A stretch of DNA of 13,736 nucleotides from a candidate division WOR-3 bacterium. GTDB taxonomy: Bacteria > Hydrothermota > Hydrothermia > JBDRYB01. Positions 20 through 13,376 of the stretch are shown one piece after another. Within the stretch, counting starts at the first letter, position 1; each line of letters begins with the position of its first letter. The notes under the pieces are model-generated. The model did not search any database. It worked only from the letters and a program-made list of their open reading frames with translations, and was not told the DNA's origin. The position numbers and the translations under genes are program-made. The stretch is from positions 1 through 13,736 of the forward strand of contig JBMFOM010000053.1 of assembly GCA_049969615.1 (NCBI GenBank). The letters run 5' to 3'.

Positions 20-781
20 TCAAACCAGGGGGGTATGCTGAGAATCAAAAATGAGCACATCCGGGGAAAGGATCACCTCCTTTTTAATCCACTCATTCGC
101 GTAGTCCTCAAGCGCGGCCATTTTGCCGCCCTTACCGAAAAGGGTTGTTCCCCTTATCTCAGCGCCCCGCACAATGGGTGTCCTGGTCATCCAGAAGGCT
201 ATTCCGCAGTTATTGGGATCGGGGTTAGTGATGCCCATGAGAACGAGTTTCGCTGGGTCAGGTATCTCAATGCTGTCAAAGATTATCCTGCCGTAAGTTG
301 GTTGACCTGTAGTTAATTCTGCACCCCTAAAATCCGCAAGCCCTGAGAAGATGGTGGACCTGAAGGACAATAAGGACGAGACGCTCGCTCCTATGAAAAT
401 CGCCCCTCCCTGGAATTTTGCCTCCCAGAAATCCGCCCCTCCCTGGAATTTTGCCTCCCTGAAAATCGCCCCTCCCTGGAATTCTGCCTCCCAGAAATCC
501 GCCCCTCCCTGGAATTTTGCCCCCTGGAAATCCGCATCGGGAAATATGAAATTGGAGAAGTCAAGTTTGCCTGATGGGTGGGTTATAGCGTTGCCTTTAT
601 GTGGCCTGAACTCCTCGTTGAATTCGGTCCAGAAATCGGTTTGCTTTGCCTCGTGATTCGGGTGGTGATATACGCAGAAATGCCCTCTTATTTTCTCCCT
701 CTTAAACTCGTGTCTCCACTCCCTCTCCGCCTCCTCGCCCCACGCGGGGCGTTTGCATATCGCGCAGGTTGGTCCCGACAT
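20..781 (-). CDS. Pentapeptide-repeat-containing protein with N-terminal Cys/His motif
   Basis: 253-aa ORF from ATG at 781, 5 bp after the lspA stop. Contains ADFQG-AKFQG-GADFWEAEFQG-GAIFREAKFQG repeats and later ADFRGAEL. The N-terminus has CAIC...HFCVYHH. Confidence 0.8.
   Translation of the reverse strand: MSGPTCAICKRPAWGEEAEREWRHEFKREKIRGHFCVYHHPNHEAKQTDFWTEFNEEFRPHKGNAITHPSGKLDFSNFIFPDADFQGAKFQGGADFWEAEFQGGAIFREAKFQGGADFWEAKFQGGAIFIGASVSSLLSFRSTIFSGLADFRGAELTTGQPTYGRIIFDSIEIPDPAKLVLMGITNPDPNNCGIAFWMTRTPIVRGAEIRGTTLFGKGGKMAALEDYANEWIKKEVILSPDVLIFDSQHTPLV
395..535. repeat. 33-bp coding tandem repeat, ~4.3 copies
   Basis: Units start at 395, 428, 461 and 494, with a partial unit at 527. 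Consensus gaaa(a/t)(t/c)cgcccctccctggaattttgcctccca. No spacers; each unit encodes 11 aa on the minus strand. Confidence 0.95.
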
Positions 782-786
782 TCAGC

Positions 787-1290
787 CTATTCGCCCTCCG
801 GTTCCTCCTCTTTCTTCCTGAACGAGAAAACGATTATGATGAGTATCCCGGTGATTATGGCGCTGTCCGCGAGGTTAAAGTAAGGCCAGCGTGCGTCCCC
901 TATCCCGAAGTTCAGGAAATCCACGACCCTGCCAATCCTGAACCGGTCCAGGAGGTTGCCGAGCGCGCCGCCCAGGATCATGCCGTAGGCGACGGTGTTC
1001 GGCCATGTCTTCTCAAAGATCAGCGCTGACAAAACCAGCGCCATTATCCCGATCATGACCGTCGGGTATAGCCAGGCCATTTCAGAGGGGAAGAGCCTGA
1101 TGCCGAAAAGGATTCCCTTGTTATAGACCAGGGTCAGCTTGAAGAAATTCCCGATGACCGGGTAATCCAGGTATGGCTTTAAGTTGCTCACAACCAGGAA
1201 CTTGATCAGCTGATCCAAGAGGGTTATCCCGGCCCAGAGCCCGGCCGCGGTCGCCAGGTATTTCCACCTAAGATTCGCGAAAAACCTCAT
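787..1290 (-). CDS. lspA: Lipoprotein signal peptidase (signal peptidase II)
   Basis: Motifs DQLIK, YNKG, GALGNLLDR, VVDF and FNLAD (both catalytic Asp present) in a 167-aa hydrophobic protein. Confidence 0.96.
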   Translation of the reverse strand: MRFFANLRWKYLATAAGLWAGITLLDQLIKFLVVSNLKPYLDYPVIGNFFKLTLVYNKGILFGIRLFPSEMAWLYPTVMIGIMALVLSALIFEKTWPNTVAYGMILGGALGNLLDRFRIGRVVDFLNFGIGDARWPYFNLADSAIITGILIIIVFSFRKKEEEPEGE

Positions 1291-1326: not shown

Positions 1327-1355
1327 CCCAGGGCAGGTTGAAACCTGCCGTTGGG
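1327..1355. terminator. GC-rich hairpin directly after the last membrane-cluster gene (possible weak terminator or mRNA-stabilising stem)
   Basis: ggcaggt(1332-1338)-tgaa-acctgcc(1343-1349), extended by ccca/tggg. There is no U-tract on the minus strand, so terminator function is uncertain. Confidence 0.35.
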
Positions 1356-2012
1356 TTATATGATGCGTAGCCAGTCGTGGAGCAGGAAATAAATCCGGCC
1401 TATGAGCAGGGAGAGCCTCGCCATGACCGTGTATCCGAACATCGCGCCGAACGCGACCATCAGGAAGGTTATGCCAACCCGCAGGACAGCCCCAAGCCTG
1501 CCTTTGTATTGCGCCGAGAAGAAGAAATACATCAGCGCGAACACCACCCCCAGGACAATGATCCAGTTGTTCATCAGGGTGAGCCATGTGGCACCCTGAA
1601 TGTTGAACAGGGGCAGGAATGTGGCTTGGGTTTGGGGGAAAAGATACCCGTTCACTACATTTACCAGGGTCAGGCCAACGCCCATTCCTGTAACAAAGGC
1701 TATGGGATACCTAGACAGGAATGTCATGTTGGGTAGGTATGTCGCGAAGACCTCAAGCTTGAACAGAATGAGCGCGCCGAGGAAAACCGCTACCCAGGTT
1801 ATGAACTTAAACACGCCCGGAAAGGCCAGGGCTTCCCTAACTGCCGGCACTATGCTCTGGTCAAGCGTGGCATAGACGCCCAGCGCGGCCGAGACACCGA
1901 CAAAAAGGTGTTCCGCCCATTTGTAGATAGGGTTATCCCGATAAAGGAAAGAGAAAACCGCAAAGGTCAGCAAGGCGGCAAACCAGATACCTATTAGTTC
2001 CCATATGTTCAT
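1356..2012 (-). CDS. Uncharacterised polytopic membrane protein (~6-7 TM), last gene of the DUF6754-like cluster
   Basis: Start reassigned to ATG 2012 (MNIWEL...), preceded by AGGAGG and 1 bp after the upstream stop; 218 aa. Motifs SFLYRDNPIYKWAEHLFVGVSA and FLMVAFGAMFGYTVMARLSLLIGR. Confidence 0.85.
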   Translation of the reverse strand: MNIWELIGIWFAALLTFAVFSFLYRDNPIYKWAEHLFVGVSAALGVYATLDQSIVPAVREALAFPGVFKFITWVAVFLGALILFKLEVFATYLPNMTFLSRYPIAFVTGMGVGLTLVNVVNGYLFPQTQATFLPLFNIQGATWLTLMNNWIIVLGVVFALMYFFFSAQYKGRLGAVLRVGITFLMVAFGAMFGYTVMARLSLLIGRIYFLLHDWLRII

Positions 2013-2013
2013 T

Positions 2014-2895
2014 TCACTTCCTCCTTGCCAGGAAAAACCCAAGGTTGCCCAGGAAAATGAGGATAACTACCAGGATGTGGACTATGCTCTGGGAGAGCAT
2101 TCCTATGGAAGCCTGGCCCTTGAAGCCGGCCAACTGCTCGTATTCGGCCGCGCCCTTCAGGCCTCCCAGTATCCCAATTATCTGACCAGCCTCAAGGTAT
2201 GTGTAGTAGGAAGGCGTTACCACCGCAGTTGAACCGAGGGCCATGGGCCACCGGCCTTGTGCCTGGCCGTATATGACCCAAACATCTCCCGTGAAGCCAG
2301 CCTCAAGGCCTATGAGTATGCCCTTCGGGTTTTCAACCGTTCCGAGGTCACGGAGGTTTCTGAAACCCTGCATGGCCGGCAGGCTGTCAAGGAGTATGCC
2401 CCTAACATCGCGGGAGAACGCCATCCTTATGTCTGAGTTCATGAGGAGCATGACGGCCATTCCTCCTGGTCTGAAACCCCAGGATACATAGTCAACCCCT
2501 TCAATCAGGGTGTCCGTTCTTTCCGGGTGTTTTCCCTCTTTTATCTCCCTGTTGAAATCCCTAACCGCGCTCATTATACCGTCTTGGCCAGCTATGAGTC
2601 CCTGGTAGTTCCAGTGGGTGAGGAGATAAACCTTGTGGCCTTTCGTGAACGCGTGCTTGCATATCCCATATAGCATTGGCTGTATTTCTGGCATGGATGA
2701 GGGGCCATAATCAGCTGAGAGAACTATCCTTGAGCCGGGCGGGAGCTTGTCTATGAACCTATAGATCTTCTCAACCTCCGGCGTTATCTGGACAGAGGGG
2801 CTTTTCTTGAAGAGGAACGGCAGGGTTGTTGCCAGGAACACCAGGCCGTAGATTATACGCCTGTCTATAGTTGTTAGCAGGTAAAGGAATTTCAT
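2014..2895 (-). CDS. Uncharacterised membrane-anchored alpha/beta-domain protein
   Basis: 293 aa: N-terminal TM (IDRRIIYGLVFLA...), soluble domain (SADYGPSSMPE; GQIIGILGGLKGAAEYE) and C-terminal TM. ATGA overlap with the upstream gene. Confidence 0.85.
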   Translation of the reverse strand: MKFLYLLTTIDRRIIYGLVFLATTLPFLFKKSPSVQITPEVEKIYRFIDKLPPGSRIVLSADYGPSSMPEIQPMLYGICKHAFTKGHKVYLLTHWNYQGLIAGQDGIMSAVRDFNREIKEGKHPERTDTLIEGVDYVSWGFRPGGMAVMLLMNSDIRMAFSRDVRGILLDSLPAMQGFRNLRDLGTVENPKGILIGLEAGFTGDVWVIYGQAQGRWPMALGSTAVVTPSYYTYLEAGQIIGILGGLKGAAEYEQLAGFKGQASIGMLSQSIVHILVVILIFLGNLGFFLARRK

Positions 2896-3704
2896 CTCAT
2901 ATACCCCCTTTCTATTCCAACAAGGACCCTGAGCGCGAACGCCAGGGAACCCAGGGATATGCCGAGGTCAATTCCCCTTCTGGCGGCCATCTGCGGGACC
3001 TCCATGATCCAAGAGGCTAGGTGAGGGACGCTTTGAACGACGAACCGGAACGCGGGGAAAAGTCGGCCATCAAGCCCTATGGGCCAGAGTAGGGTAACGC
3101 CAATCAGCAAGAAGAGAAGGCCGACCAAGAGCCTTATTCCCCTTCCCCATCCCTCGTATTGCCTGAAGACCCTGAGGAAATAAAATGCAAGGAGAAGGGC
3201 AAAGGCTATGAATATCGGAGCCGCGGCCCAATCGCCGAACGGGACCCGACCCAGCATCACTATTCCGGCTGACAGCAAGAGAAGGGATGACGAGAAGTTC
3301 CTCGCCCTGAACGCCCTGTATGCCGCGGAAGCGATGAAAAACGCCAGCAATGAGAACATCGTTGCGTCCATGGGCACGACTATGTAGCGGAACAGCCAGA
3401 GGAAGGTGGACTGGGTGGCGAAAGGCCCTCCGTATCTCCACCAGGCAAACGCTCCCCAGGCTATAGTAACCCAGAACCCGATCAGCAGTGTCATGGAATA
3501 AAGGACATTCTGCCGGCGTTGAACGCGTCTTATATGATGCATTACCAGGGAGTCTATGCCCACAGCGAGCGCAAAAGCGGCTATGATAATATCCCACTTC
3601 AGGGCCCAGGTCTGCATCATGGGGAACGGGTCAACGGGTATGAAGAACGCTGAGGCCATAAACAGCCCCACTATGAAAACGAGCCAAACCGGTGCTCTAA
3701 ACAT
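2892..3704 (-). CDS. Uncharacterised polytopic membrane protein (~8 TM)
   Basis: 270 aa, strongly hydrophobic. Motifs ATMFSLLAFFIASAAYRAFRARN, MLGRVP, AARRGI and LRVLVGIER. GGAG RBS upstream. Confidence 0.85.
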   Translation of the reverse strand: MFRAPVWLVFIVGLFMASAFFIPVDPFPMMQTWALKWDIIIAAFALAVGIDSLVMHHIRRVQRRQNVLYSMTLLIGFWVTIAWGAFAWWRYGGPFATQSTFLWLFRYIVVPMDATMFSLLAFFIASAAYRAFRARNFSSSLLLLSAGIVMLGRVPFGDWAAAPIFIAFALLLAFYFLRVFRQYEGWGRGIRLLVGLLFLLIGVTLLWPIGLDGRLFPAFRFVVQSVPHLASWIMEVPQMAARRGIDLGISLGSLAFALRVLVGIERGYMR

Positions 3705-3716
3705 ATCTTTCTCTCC

Positions 3717-5357
3717 TTAGCTCAGGAAAATGAATGAGATGCCCAGGCTCACCAGCAGGCTGAAGAGCACTATTAAGCTGACGAAGGTGGCCTTGAAGAC
3801 ATCCTCGGCTTTCAGGGTTGCCATTTGAAGCGCGTTATGCGAGAGATAGGCTGACGCGGCGTATTCCTCCTCGCCTATGAGCACATAGTCGCACGCGGCG
3901 AGGAAAAACGGTGTCTGTAGCACGGAAGCAGTGCCCGCGACCTGTATCGCGCCGACCGAGTAGCCGGCCTCGGCTATGACCAGGGACTCCGCGGCATAAT
4001 ATCCTATCAGTAATGTAGCTCCGGGCTTTTCCCTGACGATGAGGCCGCTAACCGCTCCGGCAAAAGCAAACTGCTGGCTGGAGACATAGAACACATTGTC
4101 CTCGTTGTAGAGGTCTGGCCTCCCGGCCTCCGTGTAAGCCTCTTTTATGACCTCCTTCGCCGCGGCCGTGACCATTGGATCAGCGTTGGGCATTATGACC
4201 GCGGTCTCATATTCCGCGGCCTTCTTAGCCACATGTTTGAGTATGGTCAAAGAAGCGATGGTCTCTATATCAGCGATGGTCCCTATGCCGGGAACATAAA
4301 CTATGGGCCTTCCCATCTCGGTTGACCGGCCAACAGCGTTGTCCAGCTCCTCAAGTCCGGCTATCTTCCTTATGAACATGGGTTTGCCCCTTTTGGCCAT
4401 AAAAAGGAAGCCGAAGAACACACACGCGAACAGGATGTCAAAGATGAGGACCGGAAGCTTCAGGAAGTTAAAGGGTTGAGGCTTTATATCTCGGGAATAG
4501 AAGATCGTTGACCCGTCCTCAGAGACCAGGTAATACCTGTATATGCTCATGGGTGAACGGCTCCTCAGGAGCGCTATCACCTCTTTGGATGCGCCTCGGT
4601 CAACGAAACCAGATTCCTGTCCAGCAACCTGCGCTACCGGTTCAGGGGGCGTGTGTTCCACTGTCTTCATGTCCTGCTCCCTGGCCTCAGATGACCTCAT
4701 GAGGGTGAAACTTCCCTTGCCTATGTCCCAGGAGAGCGTCAGACCGCTAAAGTGCACGGCCTCCCACATTGCCCTTATGTTCGGGATTATTTCTTGGCCG
4801 GTGGTGGCGTCCCGGATCATATAGTCCTTCTGACCCACAACAGCCGAGGCATCAGTGAAGCTCTGTGTCCCTGGAGGCAGGGTGATGATGGTGTTTCCAC
4901 CCCTTATTACCTCAACGAATCCCTGGGGCCGGAAGCCCCATTCAAGCCTGTAGCCAGCAAAGCCAAAACCCTGCCACCTGTGCGATACCACTAGACCAGC
5001 CAGGGGTTCTATTCTGACCGGTTTCGCGTCAACATATCCTCCCTCTTTCCAGACCAGGAGAGGAAGCCTCATGCCCCAAACATCTATTTCTTTGATGTAT
5101 CTGGGGCCTCCGACTGCCCTCACCGTATATGTGTGAGAACCAGCGGCCTCTTTGTCCAGGAACTCGTGTTCGCCCATCCCGGCCTGACCGATCAGTTCGC
5201 CATCCCTGAAGACCTCATATCTCAGGACCAGGGATTCGGTGGGCGATGGTTCCCAGAGAACCCAGTAGCCATCAGACCTGACCCCCACCATCAAGTTCTG
5301 CGCGGGCGCCAGTTCTGGTGCCTGGGCTATAATGCAAAAAGTCAGAATGCCTGTCAT
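3717..5357 (-). CDS. Fibronectin-type-III-like ectodomain plus DUF6754-like membrane-associated domain (long paralogue)
   Basis: 546 aa: short signal-like N-terminus, about three Fn3-like modules (W...Y/F-x-V/L-x-R...F-x-D...Y-x-Y/V), a TM helix, then IRKIAGLEELDNAVGRSTEMGRP...AACDYVLIGEEEYAASAYLS and a terminal TM. AGGAGGA RBS. DUF6754 assignment is from recalled motifs. Confidence 0.82.
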   Translation of the reverse strand: MTGILTFCIIAQAPELAPAQNLMVGVRSDGYWVLWEPSPTESLVLRYEVFRDGELIGQAGMGEHEFLDKEAAGSHTYTVRAVGGPRYIKEIDVWGMRLPLLVWKEGGYVDAKPVRIEPLAGLVVSHRWQGFGFAGYRLEWGFRPQGFVEVIRGGNTIITLPPGTQSFTDASAVVGQKDYMIRDATTGQEIIPNIRAMWEAVHFSGLTLSWDIGKGSFTLMRSSEAREQDMKTVEHTPPEPVAQVAGQESGFVDRGASKEVIALLRSRSPMSIYRYYLVSEDGSTIFYSRDIKPQPFNFLKLPVLIFDILFACVFFGFLFMAKRGKPMFIRKIAGLEELDNAVGRSTEMGRPIVYVPGIGTIADIETIASLTILKHVAKKAAEYETAVIMPNADPMVTAAAKEVIKEAYTEAGRPDLYNEDNVFYVSSQQFAFAGAVSGLIVREKPGATLLIGYYAAESLVIAEAGYSVGAIQVAGTASVLQTPFFLAACDYVLIGEEEYAASAYLSHNALQMATLKAEDVFKATFVSLIVLFSLLVSLGISFIFLS

Positions 5358-5368
5358 TAAGTCCTCCT

Positions 5369-6442
5369 TCAGGTCATAAGAAGATCAAAGATGAACTTCC
5401 ATCCTATGGTCTCGGCCACTGATCCAACCGCTATGAGTATGACGGTGATCAGCTTGAAGATGTCCTCAGCTTTAATGGTCGCTATCTGCAGGGCGTCGTC
5501 GGAAAGGTATGCCGATGCCGCATATAGCTCTTCCCCTATGAGGGTGTAATCGCAGGACGCGACGAAAAACGGGAGCTGATCTGTGGCAGATGTTCCAGCA
5601 ACCTGTATCGCGCCAACGGATTGCCCCACCTCAGCGAACATCAGGCTTTCCGCATAAAAATACCCAAGGAGGAAGACCGCGCCCGCCTTTTCCCTTATTG
5701 CAACGCCGTTAACCGCGGCCGCATAGGCGAACTGCTCCGGCGAGACAAAGAATATGTCATCCTCGTTGTAGAGGTCTGGCCTTCCGGCCTCCGTGTATGC
5801 CTCCTTGACGACCTCCTGGCTCGCGGCCATCACCAGGGGGTCGTTATTTGGCACGAGGAGTTTGGTCTCATAATCAGCGGCCTTTCTGCCTATGTGTTTT
5901 AGGACCGTGAGGGCGGCAACCGTTGGCAATTCGCTTATGGTACTCAGGCCGTGGATGAAGAGTATCGGCCTACCCAGCTCGGTTGCCCTTCCCACCGCGT
6001 TATCTAACTCCTCAAGTCCGGCTATCTTGCGGATGGTCATGGTAACGCCCCCCCTCGCCGCGAAGAGATAGGCAAAGAATACGAGGCTGAATGCCAACAG
6101 GAAGATCAGGTTGTTGAGCCGTGTGAAATCAAACCACGCGGGCCTGAATGTGATTGAGCAGGGGGCTGATTCCGCTGTTTCTTCGCCCCTAACGGCGGAG
6201 ATGATGAAGGTGTAGGTTTTGCCGGGTTTTACATCAAAATGCTTGTAGCGGTTGTATTCCTGGCTGGTGGTCGCGAGATAAACCTTCTCTCCAGATGAAT
6301 CCACCAGGTATATATCGTAGAATTGTGCGCCCGGACTCCTGTTCCACATCACCATGAGGCCTGCCGTAGTGTCGCCCACACAGGTTAGCCCCCGGATTCC
6401 GGATGGCGCGGCCAGCGCAAGCACCTCCAAGAGAACGATCAT
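5369..6442 (-). CDS. Fibronectin-type-III-like ectodomain plus DUF6754-like domain (short paralogue)
   Basis: 357 aa: a single Fn3 module (VMWNRSPGAQFYDIY...VKPGKTYTFIISAV...ES), a TM helix, then IRKIAGLEELDNAVGRATELGRP...ASCDYTLIGEELYAASAYLS, clearly homologous to the adjacent gene. Confidence 0.85.
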   Translation of the reverse strand: MIVLLEVLALAAPSGIRGLTCVGDTTAGLMVMWNRSPGAQFYDIYLVDSSGEKVYLATTSQEYNRYKHFDVKPGKTYTFIISAVRGEETAESAPCSITFRPAWFDFTRLNNLIFLLAFSLVFFAYLFAARGGVTMTIRKIAGLEELDNAVGRATELGRPILFIHGLSTISELPTVAALTVLKHIGRKAADYETKLLVPNNDPLVMAASQEVVKEAYTEAGRPDLYNEDDIFFVSPEQFAYAAAVNGVAIREKAGAVFLLGYFYAESLMFAEVGQSVGAIQVAGTSATDQLPFFVASCDYTLIGEELYAASAYLSDDALQIATIKAEDIFKLITVILIAVGSVAETIGWKFIFDLLMT

Positions 6443-6460: not shown

Positions 6461-7714
6461 TCATGTTCCCTCTCGCCAGTCCGAAAGATATTTCACCTGA
6501 TCAGGCCTCAGTTCCTCCAGGCCCATTTTCATATGCTTGAGCTTTGCCCTGGCAATCATCTCATCTATTTCCCTGGGCAGGGTATAGACCCTTTTTTCTA
6601 GCTTGCCCGCGTTGTCCTTCAAGTATTTTGCCGCGAGGAACTGGTTCGCAAAGCTCATGTCCATGACCTCAGCAGGGTGACCCTCCGCGCCAGAGAGATT
6701 GACCAGCCTGCCATCAGTAAGCAGATACACTTTCCGGCCGTCCTTGAGATTGAATTGCCTCACACCTGGCCTTACCTCGGTTTCGCCTACAGACATCCGC
6801 ACCAGGGCCGGTATGTTTATCTCAACATCAAAGTGACCTGAGTTCGCCAGGATTATACCATCCCTAGCGTGAACCAGGTGTTCCTCATCAACAACATGCT
6901 TGTCCCCGGTCGCGGTGACCAGTATATCAGCCCTGGAAATGGCCTCTGAGACGCTTACTGCTTCAAAGCCATCCATCACGGCCTCAAGCGCTCTCACCGG
7001 GTCTGACTCGCAGACCAGAACTCTCGCACCTGATCCCTTTGCCCTCTGGGCTATTCCCTTTCCGCACCAGCCATATCCGGCAACAGCAAAGGTCTTTCCT
7101 GCCAGTAGGATGTTCGTGAGCCTCAGGATGCCGTCTATGGTGCTTTGGCCAGTGCCATAACGGTTGTCAAACAGGCACTTCGTTAGGGAATCGTTGACCG
7201 CAATTATAGGATAAAGCAGAACACCCTCGCGCTCCATAGCCCTGAACCTTATGACTCCGGTCGTGGTCTCCTCGGTGCCACCGAGTGCATCCTTTGCCAT
7301 GGCTGGTGCCTCCCTGTGTATATAAGAGGTGAGATCTCCGCCGTCATCCATTGTGATGTGGGGTCCGTTACCCAGACATCTCTTTATATGGTCATAATAA
7401 GTCTCCCTGTCTTCGCCGTGGATGGCAAATACGGGTATTCTATGGTTTATCGCCAGGGCCGCCGCGACATCGTCCTGGGTTGAAAGGGGGTTGGAAGCGC
7501 AGAGCCGCACGCTCGCGCCCGCGGCCCGCAAGGCCAGAACAAGATTAGCGGTTTCGGTTGTGACATGGAGACAAAGGGAGAGCTCAAGGCCGCTCATCGC
7601 GCCCGCGTGTTCCTTTGCGAGGTTTGCCAGGACAGGCATGTGTTCGCCAGCCCAGGCTATTCTCTTCTCGCCCAGGTCTGCAAGTCCGGCATCGGCTATG
7701 TGATAATCTTCCAT
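6461..7714 (-). CDS. ahcY: Adenosylhomocysteinase (S-adenosyl-L-homocysteine hydrolase)
   Basis: Motifs CLHVT, SNPLSTQDDVAAAL, DDGGD, EETTTG, KCLFDNRYGTGQS, GYGWCGKG, GHFDVEI and GRLVNL...GHP; 417 aa. Confidence 0.98.
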   Translation of the reverse strand: MEDYHIADAGLADLGEKRIAWAGEHMPVLANLAKEHAGAMSGLELSLCLHVTTETANLVLALRAAGASVRLCASNPLSTQDDVAAALAINHRIPVFAIHGEDRETYYDHIKRCLGNGPHITMDDGGDLTSYIHREAPAMAKDALGGTEETTTGVIRFRAMEREGVLLYPIIAVNDSLTKCLFDNRYGTGQSTIDGILRLTNILLAGKTFAVAGYGWCGKGIAQRAKGSGARVLVCESDPVRALEAVMDGFEAVSVSEAISRADILVTATGDKHVVDEEHLVHARDGIILANSGHFDVEINIPALVRMSVGETEVRPGVRQFNLKDGRKVYLLTDGRLVNLSGAEGHPAEVMDMSFANQFLAAKYLKDNAGKLEKRVYTLPREIDEMIARAKLKHMKMGLEELRPDQVKYLSDWREGT

Positions 7715-7753: not shown

Positions 7754-7783
7754 ATTATATCCGTCGGCCACGGGGTGGATCAA
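7754..7783 (-). promoter_or_regulatory. Sigma70-type promoter for the ahcY / membrane-cluster operon
   Basis: Minus strand reads TTGATC (7783-7778), 18-bp spacer, TATAAT (7759-7754), about 40 bp upstream of the ahcY ATG. A GGAG RBS lies in the leader. Confidence 0.7.
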
Positions 7784-8513: not shown

Positions 8514-10718
8514 GTGCTTGTGCTTATCTTGTGTCTCATCGCCGTCTCGGTTGCTGGTCGCGCAACTGACAGCGAGACATCCGAACCTGTCCCATTCGCG
8601 GGCGTCAAGGACCTGAACACCGGCCAGGGCACCATATCCGATGGGGATGGGTTCTTTTTTCTCGGAAAACTTTCGCCTGGCAGGCATAGTTTCGTTTTTA
8701 CCCAGGTGGGCTATGAGCCTGAGACCCTGACCGTTGTCCTCCCGGAAGATGGCGTTAAGGAGATATATCCGCGCCTCAAAGCCCAGGCCGTCACGGCGAA
8801 GGAGATAGTCACTACAACCAGACGGCAGGAATTTGAGCAGGAGCTTGCCCCAATCAGGATAGAAACGGAGGCAATCAGGACAATGCCAGTGTTCCTGGAG
8901 CCGGATGTGATGAGGATATTGCAGGCCCTTCCGGGCGTAGCGGCTCCAAATGACTTTACTACAGCGCTTTATGTCCGAGGTTCTTCGCCCTCCGAGAACC
9001 TCATCTTGATTGATGGTGCGCCGGTTCTCAATCCATTCCACATGGGTGGTCTCTTCTCAACCTTCTCAACGGACATCCTGTCAGGCCTTGAGTTCTGGAT
9101 GGGCGGTTTTCCCGCGAAATACGGCACCAGGATGTCATCGGTTCTTGATGTCCAGACAAAGGAAGGCGATACCTCCGGCTTACATGGCAACGCGGATATA
9201 TCCATGCTCGCGTCCTCGGTCTTTTTGGAGGGACCCTTGCCCCTCGGTTCCTCATTCGCCCTCTCAGCTAGGAGGACCTATTTTGACAAGGTTTTGCCCC
9301 TTTTCATAAAGGATTTTGAGTTCCCATATTACTTCTATGATCTGCATGGCCGGGCCAGGGTTCCCATAAACTTCCGGACATGGCTGAGCTACACCTATTT
9401 TAGGTCCGGGGATATCCTGGACTTCAACTTTCCGGAGGAATACTACAGGATAAAAATGCCCTGGGGAAATGTGGTCAACTCCGCGAACCTGACCTATCTC
9501 CATTCACCCGAGACATTCAGCAAGCTCCTCATATATCAGAGCTTTTTCAGGATGGACATGCAAGAGGGGTCCTCCCTGCCGTCCGCACCTCCATATGGCT
9601 GGTTCAGGAACGCGGTAACATGCAAGGGTGGCCAGTATTCTCTCAACTGGACCAGAAAAGACGAGGCACTCTCGTTTGGCATTGAGTTTCAGGAGATTGA
9701 TTATTTTTATCATTACTCCATGGGAAACTATGATTTCTCAGTCAGGGCTATACCATGGAGGGCTGGGACCTATGTCTCATACAAAAAGAAATACGGGAGG
9801 CTCATTTTTAACCCCGGAATTAGGCTTGATTATTACAAGGGGTTTTCGGATTTTCTCAGGCCAGACCCGCGTTTTTCGCTCAAGTATTTCCTCACGGATA
9901 ACCTGGCATGGCTCGCATCCGGCGGCGTCTTTCACCAGTATGAGATAGTGATAAACCAGCAGGAGGACATAATGCCTTTTGCTTATTTCTGGCTCCCGGT
10001 CCTGCAGGGTCATGTCCCGCAGAGGTCTTATCACCTGATAACCGGCCTTGAGCAGTGGCTCGGAGAAGCCCTCACCCTCAAGGGAGAGATATACTACAAG
10101 CGTACGCCCGTTTCCTATGATGCTCAATATTCCTATTATTCCCAAGAGGGGTATGAGATAGACGAAGGAGAGGATTTCGTCCTTTCGCCTGGCTACGCGT
10201 TCGGCGCGGACATCCTCCTCAAGAAAGACATTGGCTCTCTGGTTGGCTGGGTGGGCTATTCTTACTGTTATGCCCAACGCCACCAGGATGGGGTCGGCTG
10301 GTATTTTCCCTCATACGAGAAGCGCCATAACGCCAACCTGTTCCTCTCGTATAAACTTGGCAGGTGGAGTTTTGGGACACGCCACAACCTATCCTCTGGC
10401 ACGCCCTACACTGCCAGATTAGGAAGGTTCAGGCGTATTTACTGGACAGAGGATGGGGAAATGGAATACTGGTGGTTTTCGGTCTGGGGAAAGAAGAACA
10501 GCCTCCGGTATCCCATGTATCACAGGATGGACATATTCGTGGAGGTATCATTCCACATTTGGCGGATTCCACTGACAATAACCGGTACTGCGATAAACAT
10601 ATATAACCACGACAATGTCTTCTTCTACTACATGGATTATTCAAAGGAGCCTCCGGTTCGCGAGGTGATGAACCAACTCCCGAGGTTCTTTTCGGTGGGG
10701 ATAAGGAGCCAGTTCTAG
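8514..10718 (+). CDS. TonB-dependent outer-membrane receptor with N-terminal carboxypeptidase-regulatory-like domain
   Basis: Signal peptide; GTISDGDGFF...FTQVGYEP domain; plug motifs LQALPGV, LYVRGSSPSENLILIDG...NPFHMGGLFS and GGFPAKYG.RMSSVLDV; aromatic-rich barrel; C-terminal Phe. True start may be GTG 8520. Confidence 0.93.
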   Translation: MLVLILCLIAVSVAGRATDSETSEPVPFAGVKDLNTGQGTISDGDGFFFLGKLSPGRHSFVFTQVGYEPETLTVVLPEDGVKEIYPRLKAQAVTAKEIVTTTRRQEFEQELAPIRIETEAIRTMPVFLEPDVMRILQALPGVAAPNDFTTALYVRGSSPSENLILIDGAPVLNPFHMGGLFSTFSTDILSGLEFWMGGFPAKYGTRMSSVLDVQTKEGDTSGLHGNADISMLASSVFLEGPLPLGSSFALSARRTYFDKVLPLFIKDFEFPYYFYDLHGRARVPINFRTWLSYTYFRSGDILDFNFPEEYYRIKMPWGNVVNSANLTYLHSPETFSKLLIYQSFFRMDMQEGSSLPSAPPYGWFRNAVTCKGGQYSLNWTRKDEALSFGIEFQEIDYFYHYSMGNYDFSVRAIPWRAGTYVSYKKKYGRLIFNPGIRLDYYKGFSDFLRPDPRFSLKYFLTDNLAWLASGGVFHQYEIVINQQEDIMPFAYFWLPVLQGHVPQRSYHLITGLEQWLGEALTLKGEIYYKRTPVSYDAQYSYYSQEGYEIDEGEDFVLSPGYAFGADILLKKDIGSLVGWVGYSYCYAQRHQDGVGWYFPSYEKRHNANLFLSYKLGRWSFGTRHNLSSGTPYTARLGRFRRIYWTEDGEMEYWWFSVWGKKNSLRYPMYHRMDIFVEVSFHIWRIPLTITGTAINIYNHDNVFFYYMDYSKEPPVREVMNQLPRFFSVGIRSQF

Positions 10719-10848: not shown

Positions 10849-10878
10849 TTGTTCCTGTTTCCCCCATGCCGCTATACT
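10849..10878 (+). promoter_or_regulatory. Sigma70-type promoter, leaderless arrangement
   Basis: TTGTTC (10849-10854), 18-bp spacer, TATACT (10873-10878). ATG at 10885 sits at the expected +1. Confidence 0.5.
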
Positions 10879-10884
10879 TTACCA

Positions 10885-11469
10885 ATGATCCATGATCTTT
10901 TCCTCTGTCTCGGCCTGGTTTCAAAAGCTCCCCCGGCCATAATCACCGGAGATGTCCAGAGCATTAAAAATTTTGATCTCATTGCTTTTTCCGGAGTCAT
11001 ATGCTCGCTGGATGTTGATCGGAACGGGAAAACAGAGACATTCTTTGTATCCGAGGCCAGGGGTTGGCGGGACGAATGGATTGATGGGCAATGGGTTGCT
11101 TATGAGGTTCTTTCAAAGCGCATAAACAAGATAGTCGGCGACGATACCATACAGGTCACCTCTTATTACTTCTCTTTCTCCACAAAGGAAAATACTCCCG
11201 TGTTTTTCGTTTCAGTGGGTTTTCTGGATGTTATCAGGGATAGCGTTATGGACATAGCTGTCGCTTCCTGGAATGATGAGGGTTTTTCCCGGCTTGTGTT
11301 ATATGACCTGTCTGGCATTGAAGGCCGCGAGAGACCAGAGATTGCCGAGCTTGTGCCAGGGCTAAAATGGGCCAGTTATGAGATTGTCTGGCCTCTCGTG
11401 AAGGCCAAAAGCCCTTATGGAACGCGGGAATATGTCTGGGAAAACGGTGATTGGGTTGAGCTTGAGTAG
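10885..11469 (+). CDS. Hypothetical, possibly exported protein with DxDxNG-type motifs
   Basis: ORF 10849..11469 with preferred start ATG 10885 (MIHDLFLCLGLVS..., 194 aa). LDVDRNGKTE and LDVIRDSVMD resemble FG-GAP/VCBS-like loops; ends in YVWENGDWV. Confidence 0.7.
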   Translation: MIHDLFLCLGLVSKAPPAIITGDVQSIKNFDLIAFSGVICSLDVDRNGKTETFFVSEARGWRDEWIDGQWVAYEVLSKRINKIVGDDTIQVTSYYFSFSTKENTPVFFVSVGFLDVIRDSVMDIAVASWNDEGFSRLVLYDLSGIEGRERPEIAELVPGLKWASYEIVWPLVKAKSPYGTREYVWENGDWVELE

Positions 11470-12468: not shown

Positions 12469-13376
12469 GATACATGCGAGATGCTGTTGGAGAGGTCCTT
12501 TGTGAGCTTGGTGAGCGTGATGAACGGGTTGTGGTCCTGGATGCTGATCTCGGCCACAGCACCCGGGCCGCGGCATTCGGGGACCGCTTTCCGGACAGAT
12601 ACTTTCAGATGGGCATAGCCGAACAAAACATGGTCGGTGTTGCGGCGGGCCTAGCGGCTGAGGGCAAGATACCTTTTGTTTCAACCTTCGCCATATTTGG
12701 AGCGAGGGCCTGGGAGCAGGTTAGGCTCTCGGTAGCGTATTCCGGCCTGCCCGTCAAGTTCATCTTCACCCACGCTGGCCTCGCTACCGGCCCTGATGGC
12801 GCGTCACACCAGATGACCGAGGACATCTCCTTGATGGCCTCGGTCCCGGGCATGACAGTTTTCTCCCCCTCGGATTATGCTTCCGCGAAGTGGGCCCTCC
12901 GCGAGGCTTACACATCCCCTGGCCCTGCTTATGTCCGGATGACCAGGCCAAAAGGTCCGGATGTGTATCCGGAGGATCATCCTTTTGCCCCCACCATTAT
13001 CCATGGAGAACCTGCCGATTTGGCCATAATCTCAACAGGACTATTGACCCCTGTTGCCCTTGAGGCGCAGAGGCTACTCGCTTCAAGGGGAGTGCTATCA
13101 ACCCTTTATGATGTCCTCAGGATCAAACCACTTGAGGCCCTATGGCTCTCTGAGGGACATAGGGCTGTCTTGGTCGTGGAGGATCATGTTCGTCATGGCG
13201 GGCTTTTCTCGTTGGTGGCTCAGTCCCTCGTGGAGTTAGGTTTGCCGGTTCTCGTCAGGTCCATTAACATGGGCGATGGTTTTGGCGAGAGCGGCGAGAC
13301 CGGCGAGCTATACGAGAAATATGGTTTTGCTCCCGAAAACCTTGCCCGGTTGGCCGAGGAGGCCATAAAAGGCTAG
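12465..13376 (+). CDS. Transketolase C-terminal subunit (pyrimidine-binding plus C-terminal domains)
   Basis: Motifs LDADL..ST, GIAEQNMVGVAAGLA, RAWEQVR, GPDGASHQ..ED, GPAYVR, VEDH...GGL and FGESG; 303 aa; ATGA-type 4-bp overlap with the upstream gene. Confidence 0.93.
   Translation: MRYMRDAVGEVLCELGERDERVVVLDADLGHSTRAAAFGDRFPDRYFQMGIAEQNMVGVAAGLAAEGKIPFVSTFAIFGARAWEQVRLSVAYSGLPVKFIFTHAGLATGPDGASHQMTEDISLMASVPGMTVFSPSDYASAKWALREAYTSPGPAYVRMTRPKGPDVYPEDHPFAPTIIHGEPADLAIISTGLLTPVALEAQRLLASRGVLSTLYDVLRIKPLEALWLSEGHRAVLVVEDHVRHGGLFSLVAQSLVELGLPVLVRSINMGDGFGESGETGELYEKYGFAPENLARLAEEAIKG

Follow-up and report, generated by a model that had tools for sequence, protein, structure and literature searches.

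The systems described to date that come closest to the one reported here are the energy-coupling factor (ECF)-type vitamin transporters, in which one shared energizer serves several membrane modules; MacB, LolCDE and FtsEX, which are mechanotransmission ATP-binding cassette (ABC) systems; and the inner-membrane platforms PilM-PilN-PilO-PilC and GspL-GspM-GspF. Here we analyze a run of five genes, g1 to g5, from a candidate division WOR-3 bacterium, whose products very probably are subunits of one membrane complex. The window, that is, the whole stretch of DNA that was analyzed, is an entire contig of 13.7 kb belonging to a 2.06-Mb, 98%-complete genome. We favor the reading that g1 to g5 encode the membrane part of a widespread machine in which a domain of the Pfam family DUF6754 docks a GlmL-like ATPase, and that this machine is an ATP-driven transporter, more likely one for uptake; to this reading as a whole we attach an even chance.

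The logic of the system recalls ECF-type transporters in that one cytoplasmic ATPase per genome stands opposite one to three diverged membrane cassettes. However, no ABC ATPase, EcfT or S-component family is present, the putative energizer has an actin fold, and the modules comprise four subunits, with domains facing the cytoplasm as well as the periplasm. As in MacB, LolCDE and FtsEX, a periplasmic domain is held between transmembrane (TM) helices and would be coupled to a cytoplasmic ATPase, but there is no FtsX, MacB or ABC_tran match, and the ATPase fold, the number of subunits and the domain folds all differ. The PilMNOC and GspLMF platforms offer the likeness of an actin-fold protein docking on bitopic membrane proteins beside a polytopic subunit, yet none of those families was matched in the cassette or the ATPase, and no secretion ATPase, pilin or secretin gene was found in the window or, by eye, in ten related operons whose genes were listed. 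The ATPase itself resembles GlmL/MutL, the glutamate mutase accessory protein, and the related reactivase-type ASKHA ATPases in its Pfam MutL match and in both phosphate-binding motifs. It differs from them in scoring below the NCBIfam cut-offs and in being linked to membrane proteins instead of a B12 enzyme.

DUF6754, of which g1 and g2 match the whole model, is a catalogue entry without a function. A full-text literature search returned no paper naming it and likewise none naming PF13941, the Pfam MutL family, and for GlmL the search listings gave, besides false "g/ml" matches, the classical pathway only. As the initial annotation of this locus had supposed, the system matches no characterized complex in the libraries used (Pfam, NCBIfam, PDB sequences and PADLOC).

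The Four-Gene Cassette and Its Distribution

All five genes are read from the minus strand in the order A, A', B, C, D: g1 (subunit A1, 357 aa, 5369-6442), g2 (subunit A2, 546 aa, 3717-5357), g3 (subunit B, 270 aa, 2892-3704), g4 (subunit C, 293 aa, 2014-2895) and g5 (subunit D, 218 aa, 1356-2012). Gaps of 11 bp and 12 bp separate g1 from g2 and g2 from g3, g3 and g4 overlap by 4 bp, and 1 bp lies between g4 and g5; purine-rich Shine-Dalgarno-like motifs accompany all five starts, with GGGGA upstream of the g1 ATG and a strong GAAGGAGG site at g2. The longest frame of g5 opens at a TTG at 2042; the ATG at 2012, with AAGGAGG upstream, yields the 1-bp junction and a protein of 218 aa. The open reading frames (ORFs) and start motifs thus agree with the initial annotation on five co-directional genes, on their junctions and on their ribosome-binding sites.

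Homologues of DUF6754, g3, g4 and g5 are each present in 41/41 genomes of the class (12 families, 18 genera), in one to three copies per genome, and the order A-B-C-D holds in all 20 class loci that were fetched (21 cassettes). When contigs representing one genome per species were searched with a pattern built on the g4 alignment, at least 567 relatives were recovered, from which 79 loci were retained. Their phylum labels include Hydrothermota, Zixibacteria, Ignavibacteria, Planctomycetota (among them the anammox genera Scalindua and Anammoxibacter), Neomarinimicrobiota or Fidelibacterota, Latescibacterota, Poribacteria, Cloacimonadota, Nitrospirota (Nitrospira), several candidate phyla and others. 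A complete A-B-C-D run was present in 72 of these 79 loci from other phyla, with two or more cassettes in 11; the seven loci without one comprise three contig-end cuts, two ORF-calling artefacts, one lone C and one array of C paralogues. With 72 of 79 loci showing this order, the arrangement seen in the window is far beyond chance, and gene order defines a conserved cassette of four genes, A-B-C-D, which has become five genes here through duplication of A. The view that these genes encode subunits of one complex and that the partner families cluster with DUF6754 is therefore borne out, whereas the notion of a five-gene complex has to be amended: the genes do belong together, but the conserved unit has four members and the two DUF6754 paralogues reflect tandem duplication of a single subunit.

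Departures from the compact arrangement were also seen. In one family of the class (three genomes, G003, G030 and G038) the cassette is split, with A and B adjacent and C and D on other contigs. Two further loci, one of them a Coatesbacteria record, carry three tandem g4-like genes after the cassette, while A, B and D have no additional copies, which is an expansion of the periplasmic-domain subunit C alone.

A GlmL-Like ATPase Encoded Elsewhere in the Genome

The initial annotation saw no ATPase; this is true of the window, but the genome encodes both a GlmL-like ATPase and a barrel-sandwich partner elsewhere. Its one PF13941 gene (contig C109, 3118-4962, 614 aa) matches the family over its full length (E 1e-130, or 7e-130 against Pfam MutL), and the phosphate-binding motifs D-x-G-S-T-x-x-K and D-I-G-G-A-T-T-D are invariant in 21 sequences. 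The protein scores 241.7 against a cut-off of 475 for GlmL (NF040745) and 171 against 204 for glmL_fam, and it has ~130 additional C-terminal residues relative to GlmL. Falling below the equivalog cut-off, in a 98%-complete genome that yielded no match to the glutamate mutase E subunit (PF06368), it does not classify as GlmL proper. The gene adjoins a sigma-factor-like gene (named by eye), a neighbor that it has in 8 of 19 fetched loci. The partner homologue (C48, 9507-10625) is 48-50% identical to operon-encoded partners of other lineages and gives weak matches to barrel-sandwich-hybrid families (Biotin_lipoyl, RnfC_N, NqrA_N). A homologue of a third, small protein was located at C19, 12641-12847 (also placed as 12636-12899), where it sits between an LptC-like gene and a gene for an Rce1-like CAAX protease.

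In other phyla these genes stand together. Of the 79 loci, 28 carry the ATPase in the 4 kb that flank the cassette, and the ORFs listed for ten of them (Marinimicrobia, Nitrospira and anammox records included) give the ATPase, a 375-aa partner, A, B, C and D; in the Marinimicrobia operons a protein of ~100 aa is inserted between the partner and A. Within the class, the ATPase is found in 41/41 genomes, apparently as a single copy, the extra matches being pieces of one split gene, and 19 aligned class homologues are 67-91% identical to the protein of the window genome. Second or third PF13941 paralogues, in frames of 476-966 aa, occur in some genomes of the phylum (G214, G199, G211, G224 and G274 among them); one of these paralogues (in G214, E 2e-164) is a far stronger MutL match than the cassette-linked type.

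Presence and absence of the two families also coincide. In a sample of 151 Nitrospirota genomes, DUF6754 occurs in 25 and PF13941 accompanies it in 25/25, on the same contig and ~3.5 kb away; the 126 genomes lacking DUF6754 yielded one PF13941 fragment, at a contig end. In 151 genomes of the bacterium's own phylum, 133 have both families, 15 have neither, two have DUF6754 only and one has PF13941 only. The 15 genomes without both are every sampled genome of a single genus (g29, family f21). Searches of the five genomes of this genus with the highest completeness (93-95%) turned up no partner, C or D (0/5 each), while across five sister genera from the same family the partner was found in 5/5 and C in 5/5. 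Genus g29 is thus a natural knockout of the whole system, a loss that is informative because, in the class of the window and so in at least part of the phylum, the cassette, the ATPase and the partner are not linked to one another.

Complex prediction was run with the ATPase (alignment of 21) and residues 128-318 of g1 (alignment of 22). Docking scores of 0.70, 0.67 and 0.66 (median 0.67) were obtained, compared with a best score of 0.00 for three controls; at least 96% of contacts were common to the runs and the predicted local distance difference test (pLDDT) value of the partner was at least 81. The mark used was reached by 116/157 solved complexes and 2/215 mismatched pairs in the calibration of the tool, a guide that is rough only, as our own alignments were used. 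The predicted docking surface on g1 covers residues 141-158, 190-192 and 274-300, and in the predicted interface invariant residues of the ATPase (G161-H170 and K393-Q396) meet invariant residues of g1 (G142-G157, G277-I279 and D298-T300). From operon linkage in other phyla, co-occurrence, joint loss and this prediction, we infer that the ATPase is coupled to the cassette: it would dock on the cytoplasmic DUF6754 domain and act with the barrel-sandwich partner.

Architecture of the Subunits

The two DUF6754-like paralogues recognized initially are well supported by Pfam (PF20539), with 363.1 bits (E 8e-109) for g1 and 336.9 bits (E 8e-101) for g2 against a gathering score of 27, and each match spans ~250 of the 257 model positions. 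g1 has a signal-like N-terminus, one Fn3 domain (residues 17-98, 6149-6394, predicted extracytoplasmic) and a DUF6754 region (residues 101-352, 5387-6142) made up of TM1 (106-130), an alpha/beta domain (~141-300) and TM2 (317-346). Its AlphaFold2 (AF2) model has a mean pLDDT of 75.9, with a confident Fn3 sandwich at 17-98 and alternating helices and strands at 141-251. In a VIA comparison of this model, residues 11-101 show the seven-strand Fn3 fold (7jgu_A, Z 14.0, root-mean-square deviation 1.4 A, 88 residues aligned). Foldseek gave 88 matches at E 1e-3 or better, and 49 of the 50 rows shown span ~90-110 columns, corresponding to the Fn3 module; a PDB sequence search with g1 likewise returned Fn3 chains only. 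The Pfam fn3 model (PF00041, cut-off 25 bits) was narrowly missed, at 20.6 bits for the whole protein and 24.5 bits for the N-terminal 101 aa.

The ectodomain of g2 (residues 1-292, 4482-5357) is longer and comprises a signal-like start, a module resembling rhamnogalacturonan I (RG-I) lyases and two beta-rich stretches, followed by the DUF6754 region (residues 293-541, 3735-4481). Residues 22-83 resemble the Fn3-like beta domain of RG-I lyases (Pfam RGI_lyase 27.8 bits over residues 28-83, equal to the cut-off; PDB 2z8r, E 1e-4), g2 has no Pfam fn3 match, and the membrane-proximal part of its ~290-aa ectodomain aligns with the Fn3 of homologues. The Fn3 modules first proposed for both proteins are therefore supported for g1 by fold, if not by the Pfam cut-off, while the first module of g2 is RGI_lyase-like.

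g1 and g2 share 61% identity across their DUF6754 regions and are sisters in the tree (support 98/93), inside the long-form clade. On this phylogeny g2 is a lineage-specific tandem duplicate of g1; it was also considered as the remnant of a second, short-form cassette, which the sister relationship within the long-form clade rules out. The single cassette of this genus contains two A genes, and both copies are retained in the two other genomes of the genus. The difference between them lies mainly in the ectodomain, one Fn3 in g1 vs. ~290 aa of beta modules in g2, and among homologues the ectodomain of A may be absent, consist of one Fn3 or extend to ~800 aa, in keeping with the variable Fn3 arms that were initially envisaged.

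Hydropathy and AF2 modeling bear out that all five are membrane proteins, g3 and g5 being polytopic (seven and five hydropathy peaks) and g4 having a TM-alpha/beta-TM layout. g3, g4 and g5 belong to no family in Pfam or NCBIfam; when all sequences in the three partner alignments were scanned against Pfam, up to E 5, no family recurred, and PDB sequence searches with the g3, g4 and g5 profiles gave nothing meaningful. g3 is of the long form, with a two-helix insertion missing from short (~205 aa) paralogues. Its family has 20 invariant residues in 21 sequences, including a SAAYRAFRAR-type motif, the g5 family has 30 in 20 sequences, including FGASFGYT.MAR, and invariant polar residues are numerous in all four families, A to D.

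The AF2 model of g4, built from 56 sequences, has a pLDDT of 95.6 and a predicted template-modeling score of 0.91. It consists of a TM helix, a three-layer alpha/beta/alpha Rossmann-like domain and a long C-terminal TM helix with a basic tail. Foldseek found no match for it at E 1e-3 or better, and VIA returned generic Rossmann-like rows, led by 1kjn_B (Z 9.2) and followed by transhydrogenase dIII and KtrA (Z 8.2). The g4 family is large (5,491 cluster representatives at 50% identity, out of 1.84 billion searched with a profile). In the ESM Atlas, g3 led to unnamed clusters only and g4 to no usable named cluster, with no structure for either.

g4 shares its layout with the A proteins, as proposed at the outset, but the two domains probably face opposite sides of the membrane. 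In A proteins (n = 22), the 15 residues after TM1 contain 4.5 K+R (net charge +3.55) and those before it 1.5 (net -0.4), whereas C proteins (n = 56) have basic short tails at both ends (3.96 K+R each; C-tail net +3.5). Under the positive-inside rule, this charge bias places the DUF6754 domain probably in the cytoplasm, with the Fn3 arm outside, and the Rossmann-like domain of C probably in the periplasm. A common origin of DUF6754 and g4 by duplication is not supported, as their profile-profile comparison is not significant (E 0.064, probability 0.9%), although 153 columns are co-linear with matching secondary structure; a comparison of the g3 and g5 profiles found nothing.

No ABC, kinase or cofactor family was detected in any of g1 to g5 with Pfam, NCBIfam or PADLOC, and neither ABC_tran nor any permease family reached E 0.01, so that the cassette does not classify as an ABC transporter. 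PADLOC anti-phage models gave 0 families among g1 to g5, the ATPase and the partner.

Proposed Function and Competing Explanations

An ATP-driven transporter, likelier for uptake, is favored because one ATPase facing several cassettes with differing ectodomains recalls shared-energizer systems. ATP-driven movements of the ATPase would pass via A to the helices of B and D, the periplasmic domain of C and the Fn3 arms, and a substrate would thereby be carried over the inner membrane. A single ATPase would serve one to several cassettes, with the ectodomains setting specificity. More tentatively, and with the chances leaning clearly against it, the system may constitute a new class of primary active transporter, in which an actin-fold (ASKHA) ATPase is shared among four-subunit modules, Fn3 and Rossmann-like domains choose the cargo and the duplicated A provides two capture arms.

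A number of observations weigh against an ATP-driven uptake transporter. The docking score is the model's own confidence and comes from shallow alignments (21-22 related rows). ATPase, partner and cassette lie on three separate contigs here and, for that reason, their linkage in this genome is drawn from other lineages only. The pattern of co-occurrence is broken by three genomes, two with DUF6754 only (G215 and G245, 87% and 94% complete) and one with PF13941 only (G225, 77% complete), and the counts are non-independent, since they come down to roughly a single clade-level presence in Nitrospirota and a single loss in the bacterium's own phylum. The most conserved stretch of g1 (residues 253-297) has a pLDDT below 50 in the monomer AF2 model, the result lists of fold searches with full g1 (Foldseek and VIA) are occupied by Fn3 domains with the DUF6754 domain unrepresented, and the g4 domain is only generically Rossmann-like, Z 8 being attained by only 3 of the 48,161 chains. 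Among the fold and family searches run, no match indicated a function. Lastly, the gene that follows the cassette, lspA, fits envelope biogenesis as well as uptake.

That gene leads to the serious rival, an ATP-driven machine for envelope biogenesis or export, which would move a lipoprotein, surface protein, lipid or polymer outward or transmit force to the periplasm in the manner of MacB, LolCDE and FtsEX, with Fn3 arms touching wall or outer-membrane partners; we judge it unlikely. lspA (signal peptidase II, 787-1290, minus strand) lies immediately downstream of g5, and it is the next gene after a long-form subunit D in the window and in eight other loci, of which seven are fetched class loci from six families (the bacterium's own included) and one is from a Hydrothermota metagenome-assembled genome (MAG). 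This linkage may be inherited gene order or may hint at a connection with lipoprotein processing. An export role would also suit the LptC-like neighbor of the small-protein homologue, the position of the periplasmic domain of C between two TM helices, the exported Fn3 modules of A, which are typical of surface proteins, and the conservation of the ATPase at a housekeeping level. However, the lspA linkage was seen only within the class and in that one Hydrothermota MAG. Moreover, genomes carry one to three DUF6754 genes, and up to six in other phyla (a proxy for diverged cassettes), and as these multiple copies differ in the ectodomain of A they resemble substrate-specific uptake modules more than they do a lone housekeeping exporter.

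Uptake system, channel and sensor were the three roles first suggested for these genes. A passive channel or stand-alone secondary carrier is less likely than an ATP-coupled machine, because an ATPase encoded in trans is associated with the cassette. In such a scheme the window genes would work without ATP and the ATPase would be just a frequent neighbor with a separate job, an explanation that we consider improbable. It would account for a window and contig devoid of an ATPase gene, for the unlinked state of cassette and ATPase across the whole class, and for the two genomes with DUF6754 but no PF13941 match. It would not readily account for the operons, at least 28 among the 79 loci, that unite ATPase, partner and cassette, for joint presence in 25/25 and 133/135 genomes together with loss of the whole set in one genus, or for a predicted docking that involves invariant residues, and a simple carrier would have no evident need for the large, near-invariant cytoplasmic domain of A. 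A transmembrane sensor, in which the A and C ectodomains would sense a cue and the DUF6754 domain would regulate the ATPase or partner, fits the combination of variable ectodomains with an invariant cytoplasmic domain predicted to contact a soluble protein, but it is very doubtful given that kinase, cyclase, HAMP, PAS and DNA-binding families were not found in any component and that two polytopic subunits with 20-30 invariant residues each exceed what a sensor needs.

Flanking Signals and Neighboring Genes

The hairpin initially described at the end of the run is present as a stem-loop at 1327-1355 (minus strand), immediately 3' of the g5 stop, with a 7-bp GC-rich stem, a 4-nt loop and an outer 4-bp stem (-19.6 kcal/mol for a 66-nt segment). 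Its role as an intrinsic terminator is unsupported, as it has no T-run and does not appear in the terminator-scan output. On the other side, the adenosylhomocysteinase gene ahcY (6461-7714, minus strand; TIGR00936, E 2e-175) ends 18 bp upstream of g1 on the same strand, and the best promoter-like site of the region (7754-7783, minus strand, TTGATC-18-TATAAT, 10/12) lies upstream of ahcY. Because of the short gap and the position of this site, ahcY and g1 to g5 may share a single transcript.

Directly 3' of lspA, a gene at 20-781 (minus strand) encodes a pentapeptide-repeat protein of 253 aa (Pentapeptide_3, E 1e-15) with a Cys/His-rich N-terminus. On the plus strand, an ORF of 734 aa with a GTG start (8514-10718) has CarboxypepD_reg-like and TonB Plug domains; no barrel family was matched at E 0.01 or better, and from its domains it is probably a divergent TonB-dependent outer-membrane receptor. 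The next ORF (206 aa, 10849-11469) has no family match.

Significance

The present analysis adds to this system a dispersed seven-component layout, a tandem duplication of A, loss of the whole system in one genus, linkage to lspA, and a docking prediction for a bacterium whose ATPase is unlinked from its cassette. The system is directly testable, because Nitrospira, of which isolates exist, carries the whole seven-gene operon in MAG records. Actin-fold ATPases are not known to act as the motor of a membrane transporter, and if the coupling of the ATPase to the cassette is true, this would be a membrane machine driven by such an ATPase. The cassette is present in 41/41 genomes of the class and in 135/151 sampled genomes of the phylum, and its carriers include Nitrospira, anammox Planctomycetota, Marinimicrobia, Poribacteria and candidate phyla, groups that are important in the nitrogen and carbon cycles. 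Considering that genomes of only 1.4-2.4 Mb keep up to three copies together with an ATPase that is 67-91% identical, the function of cassette and ATPase is probably central and essential to these bacteria.

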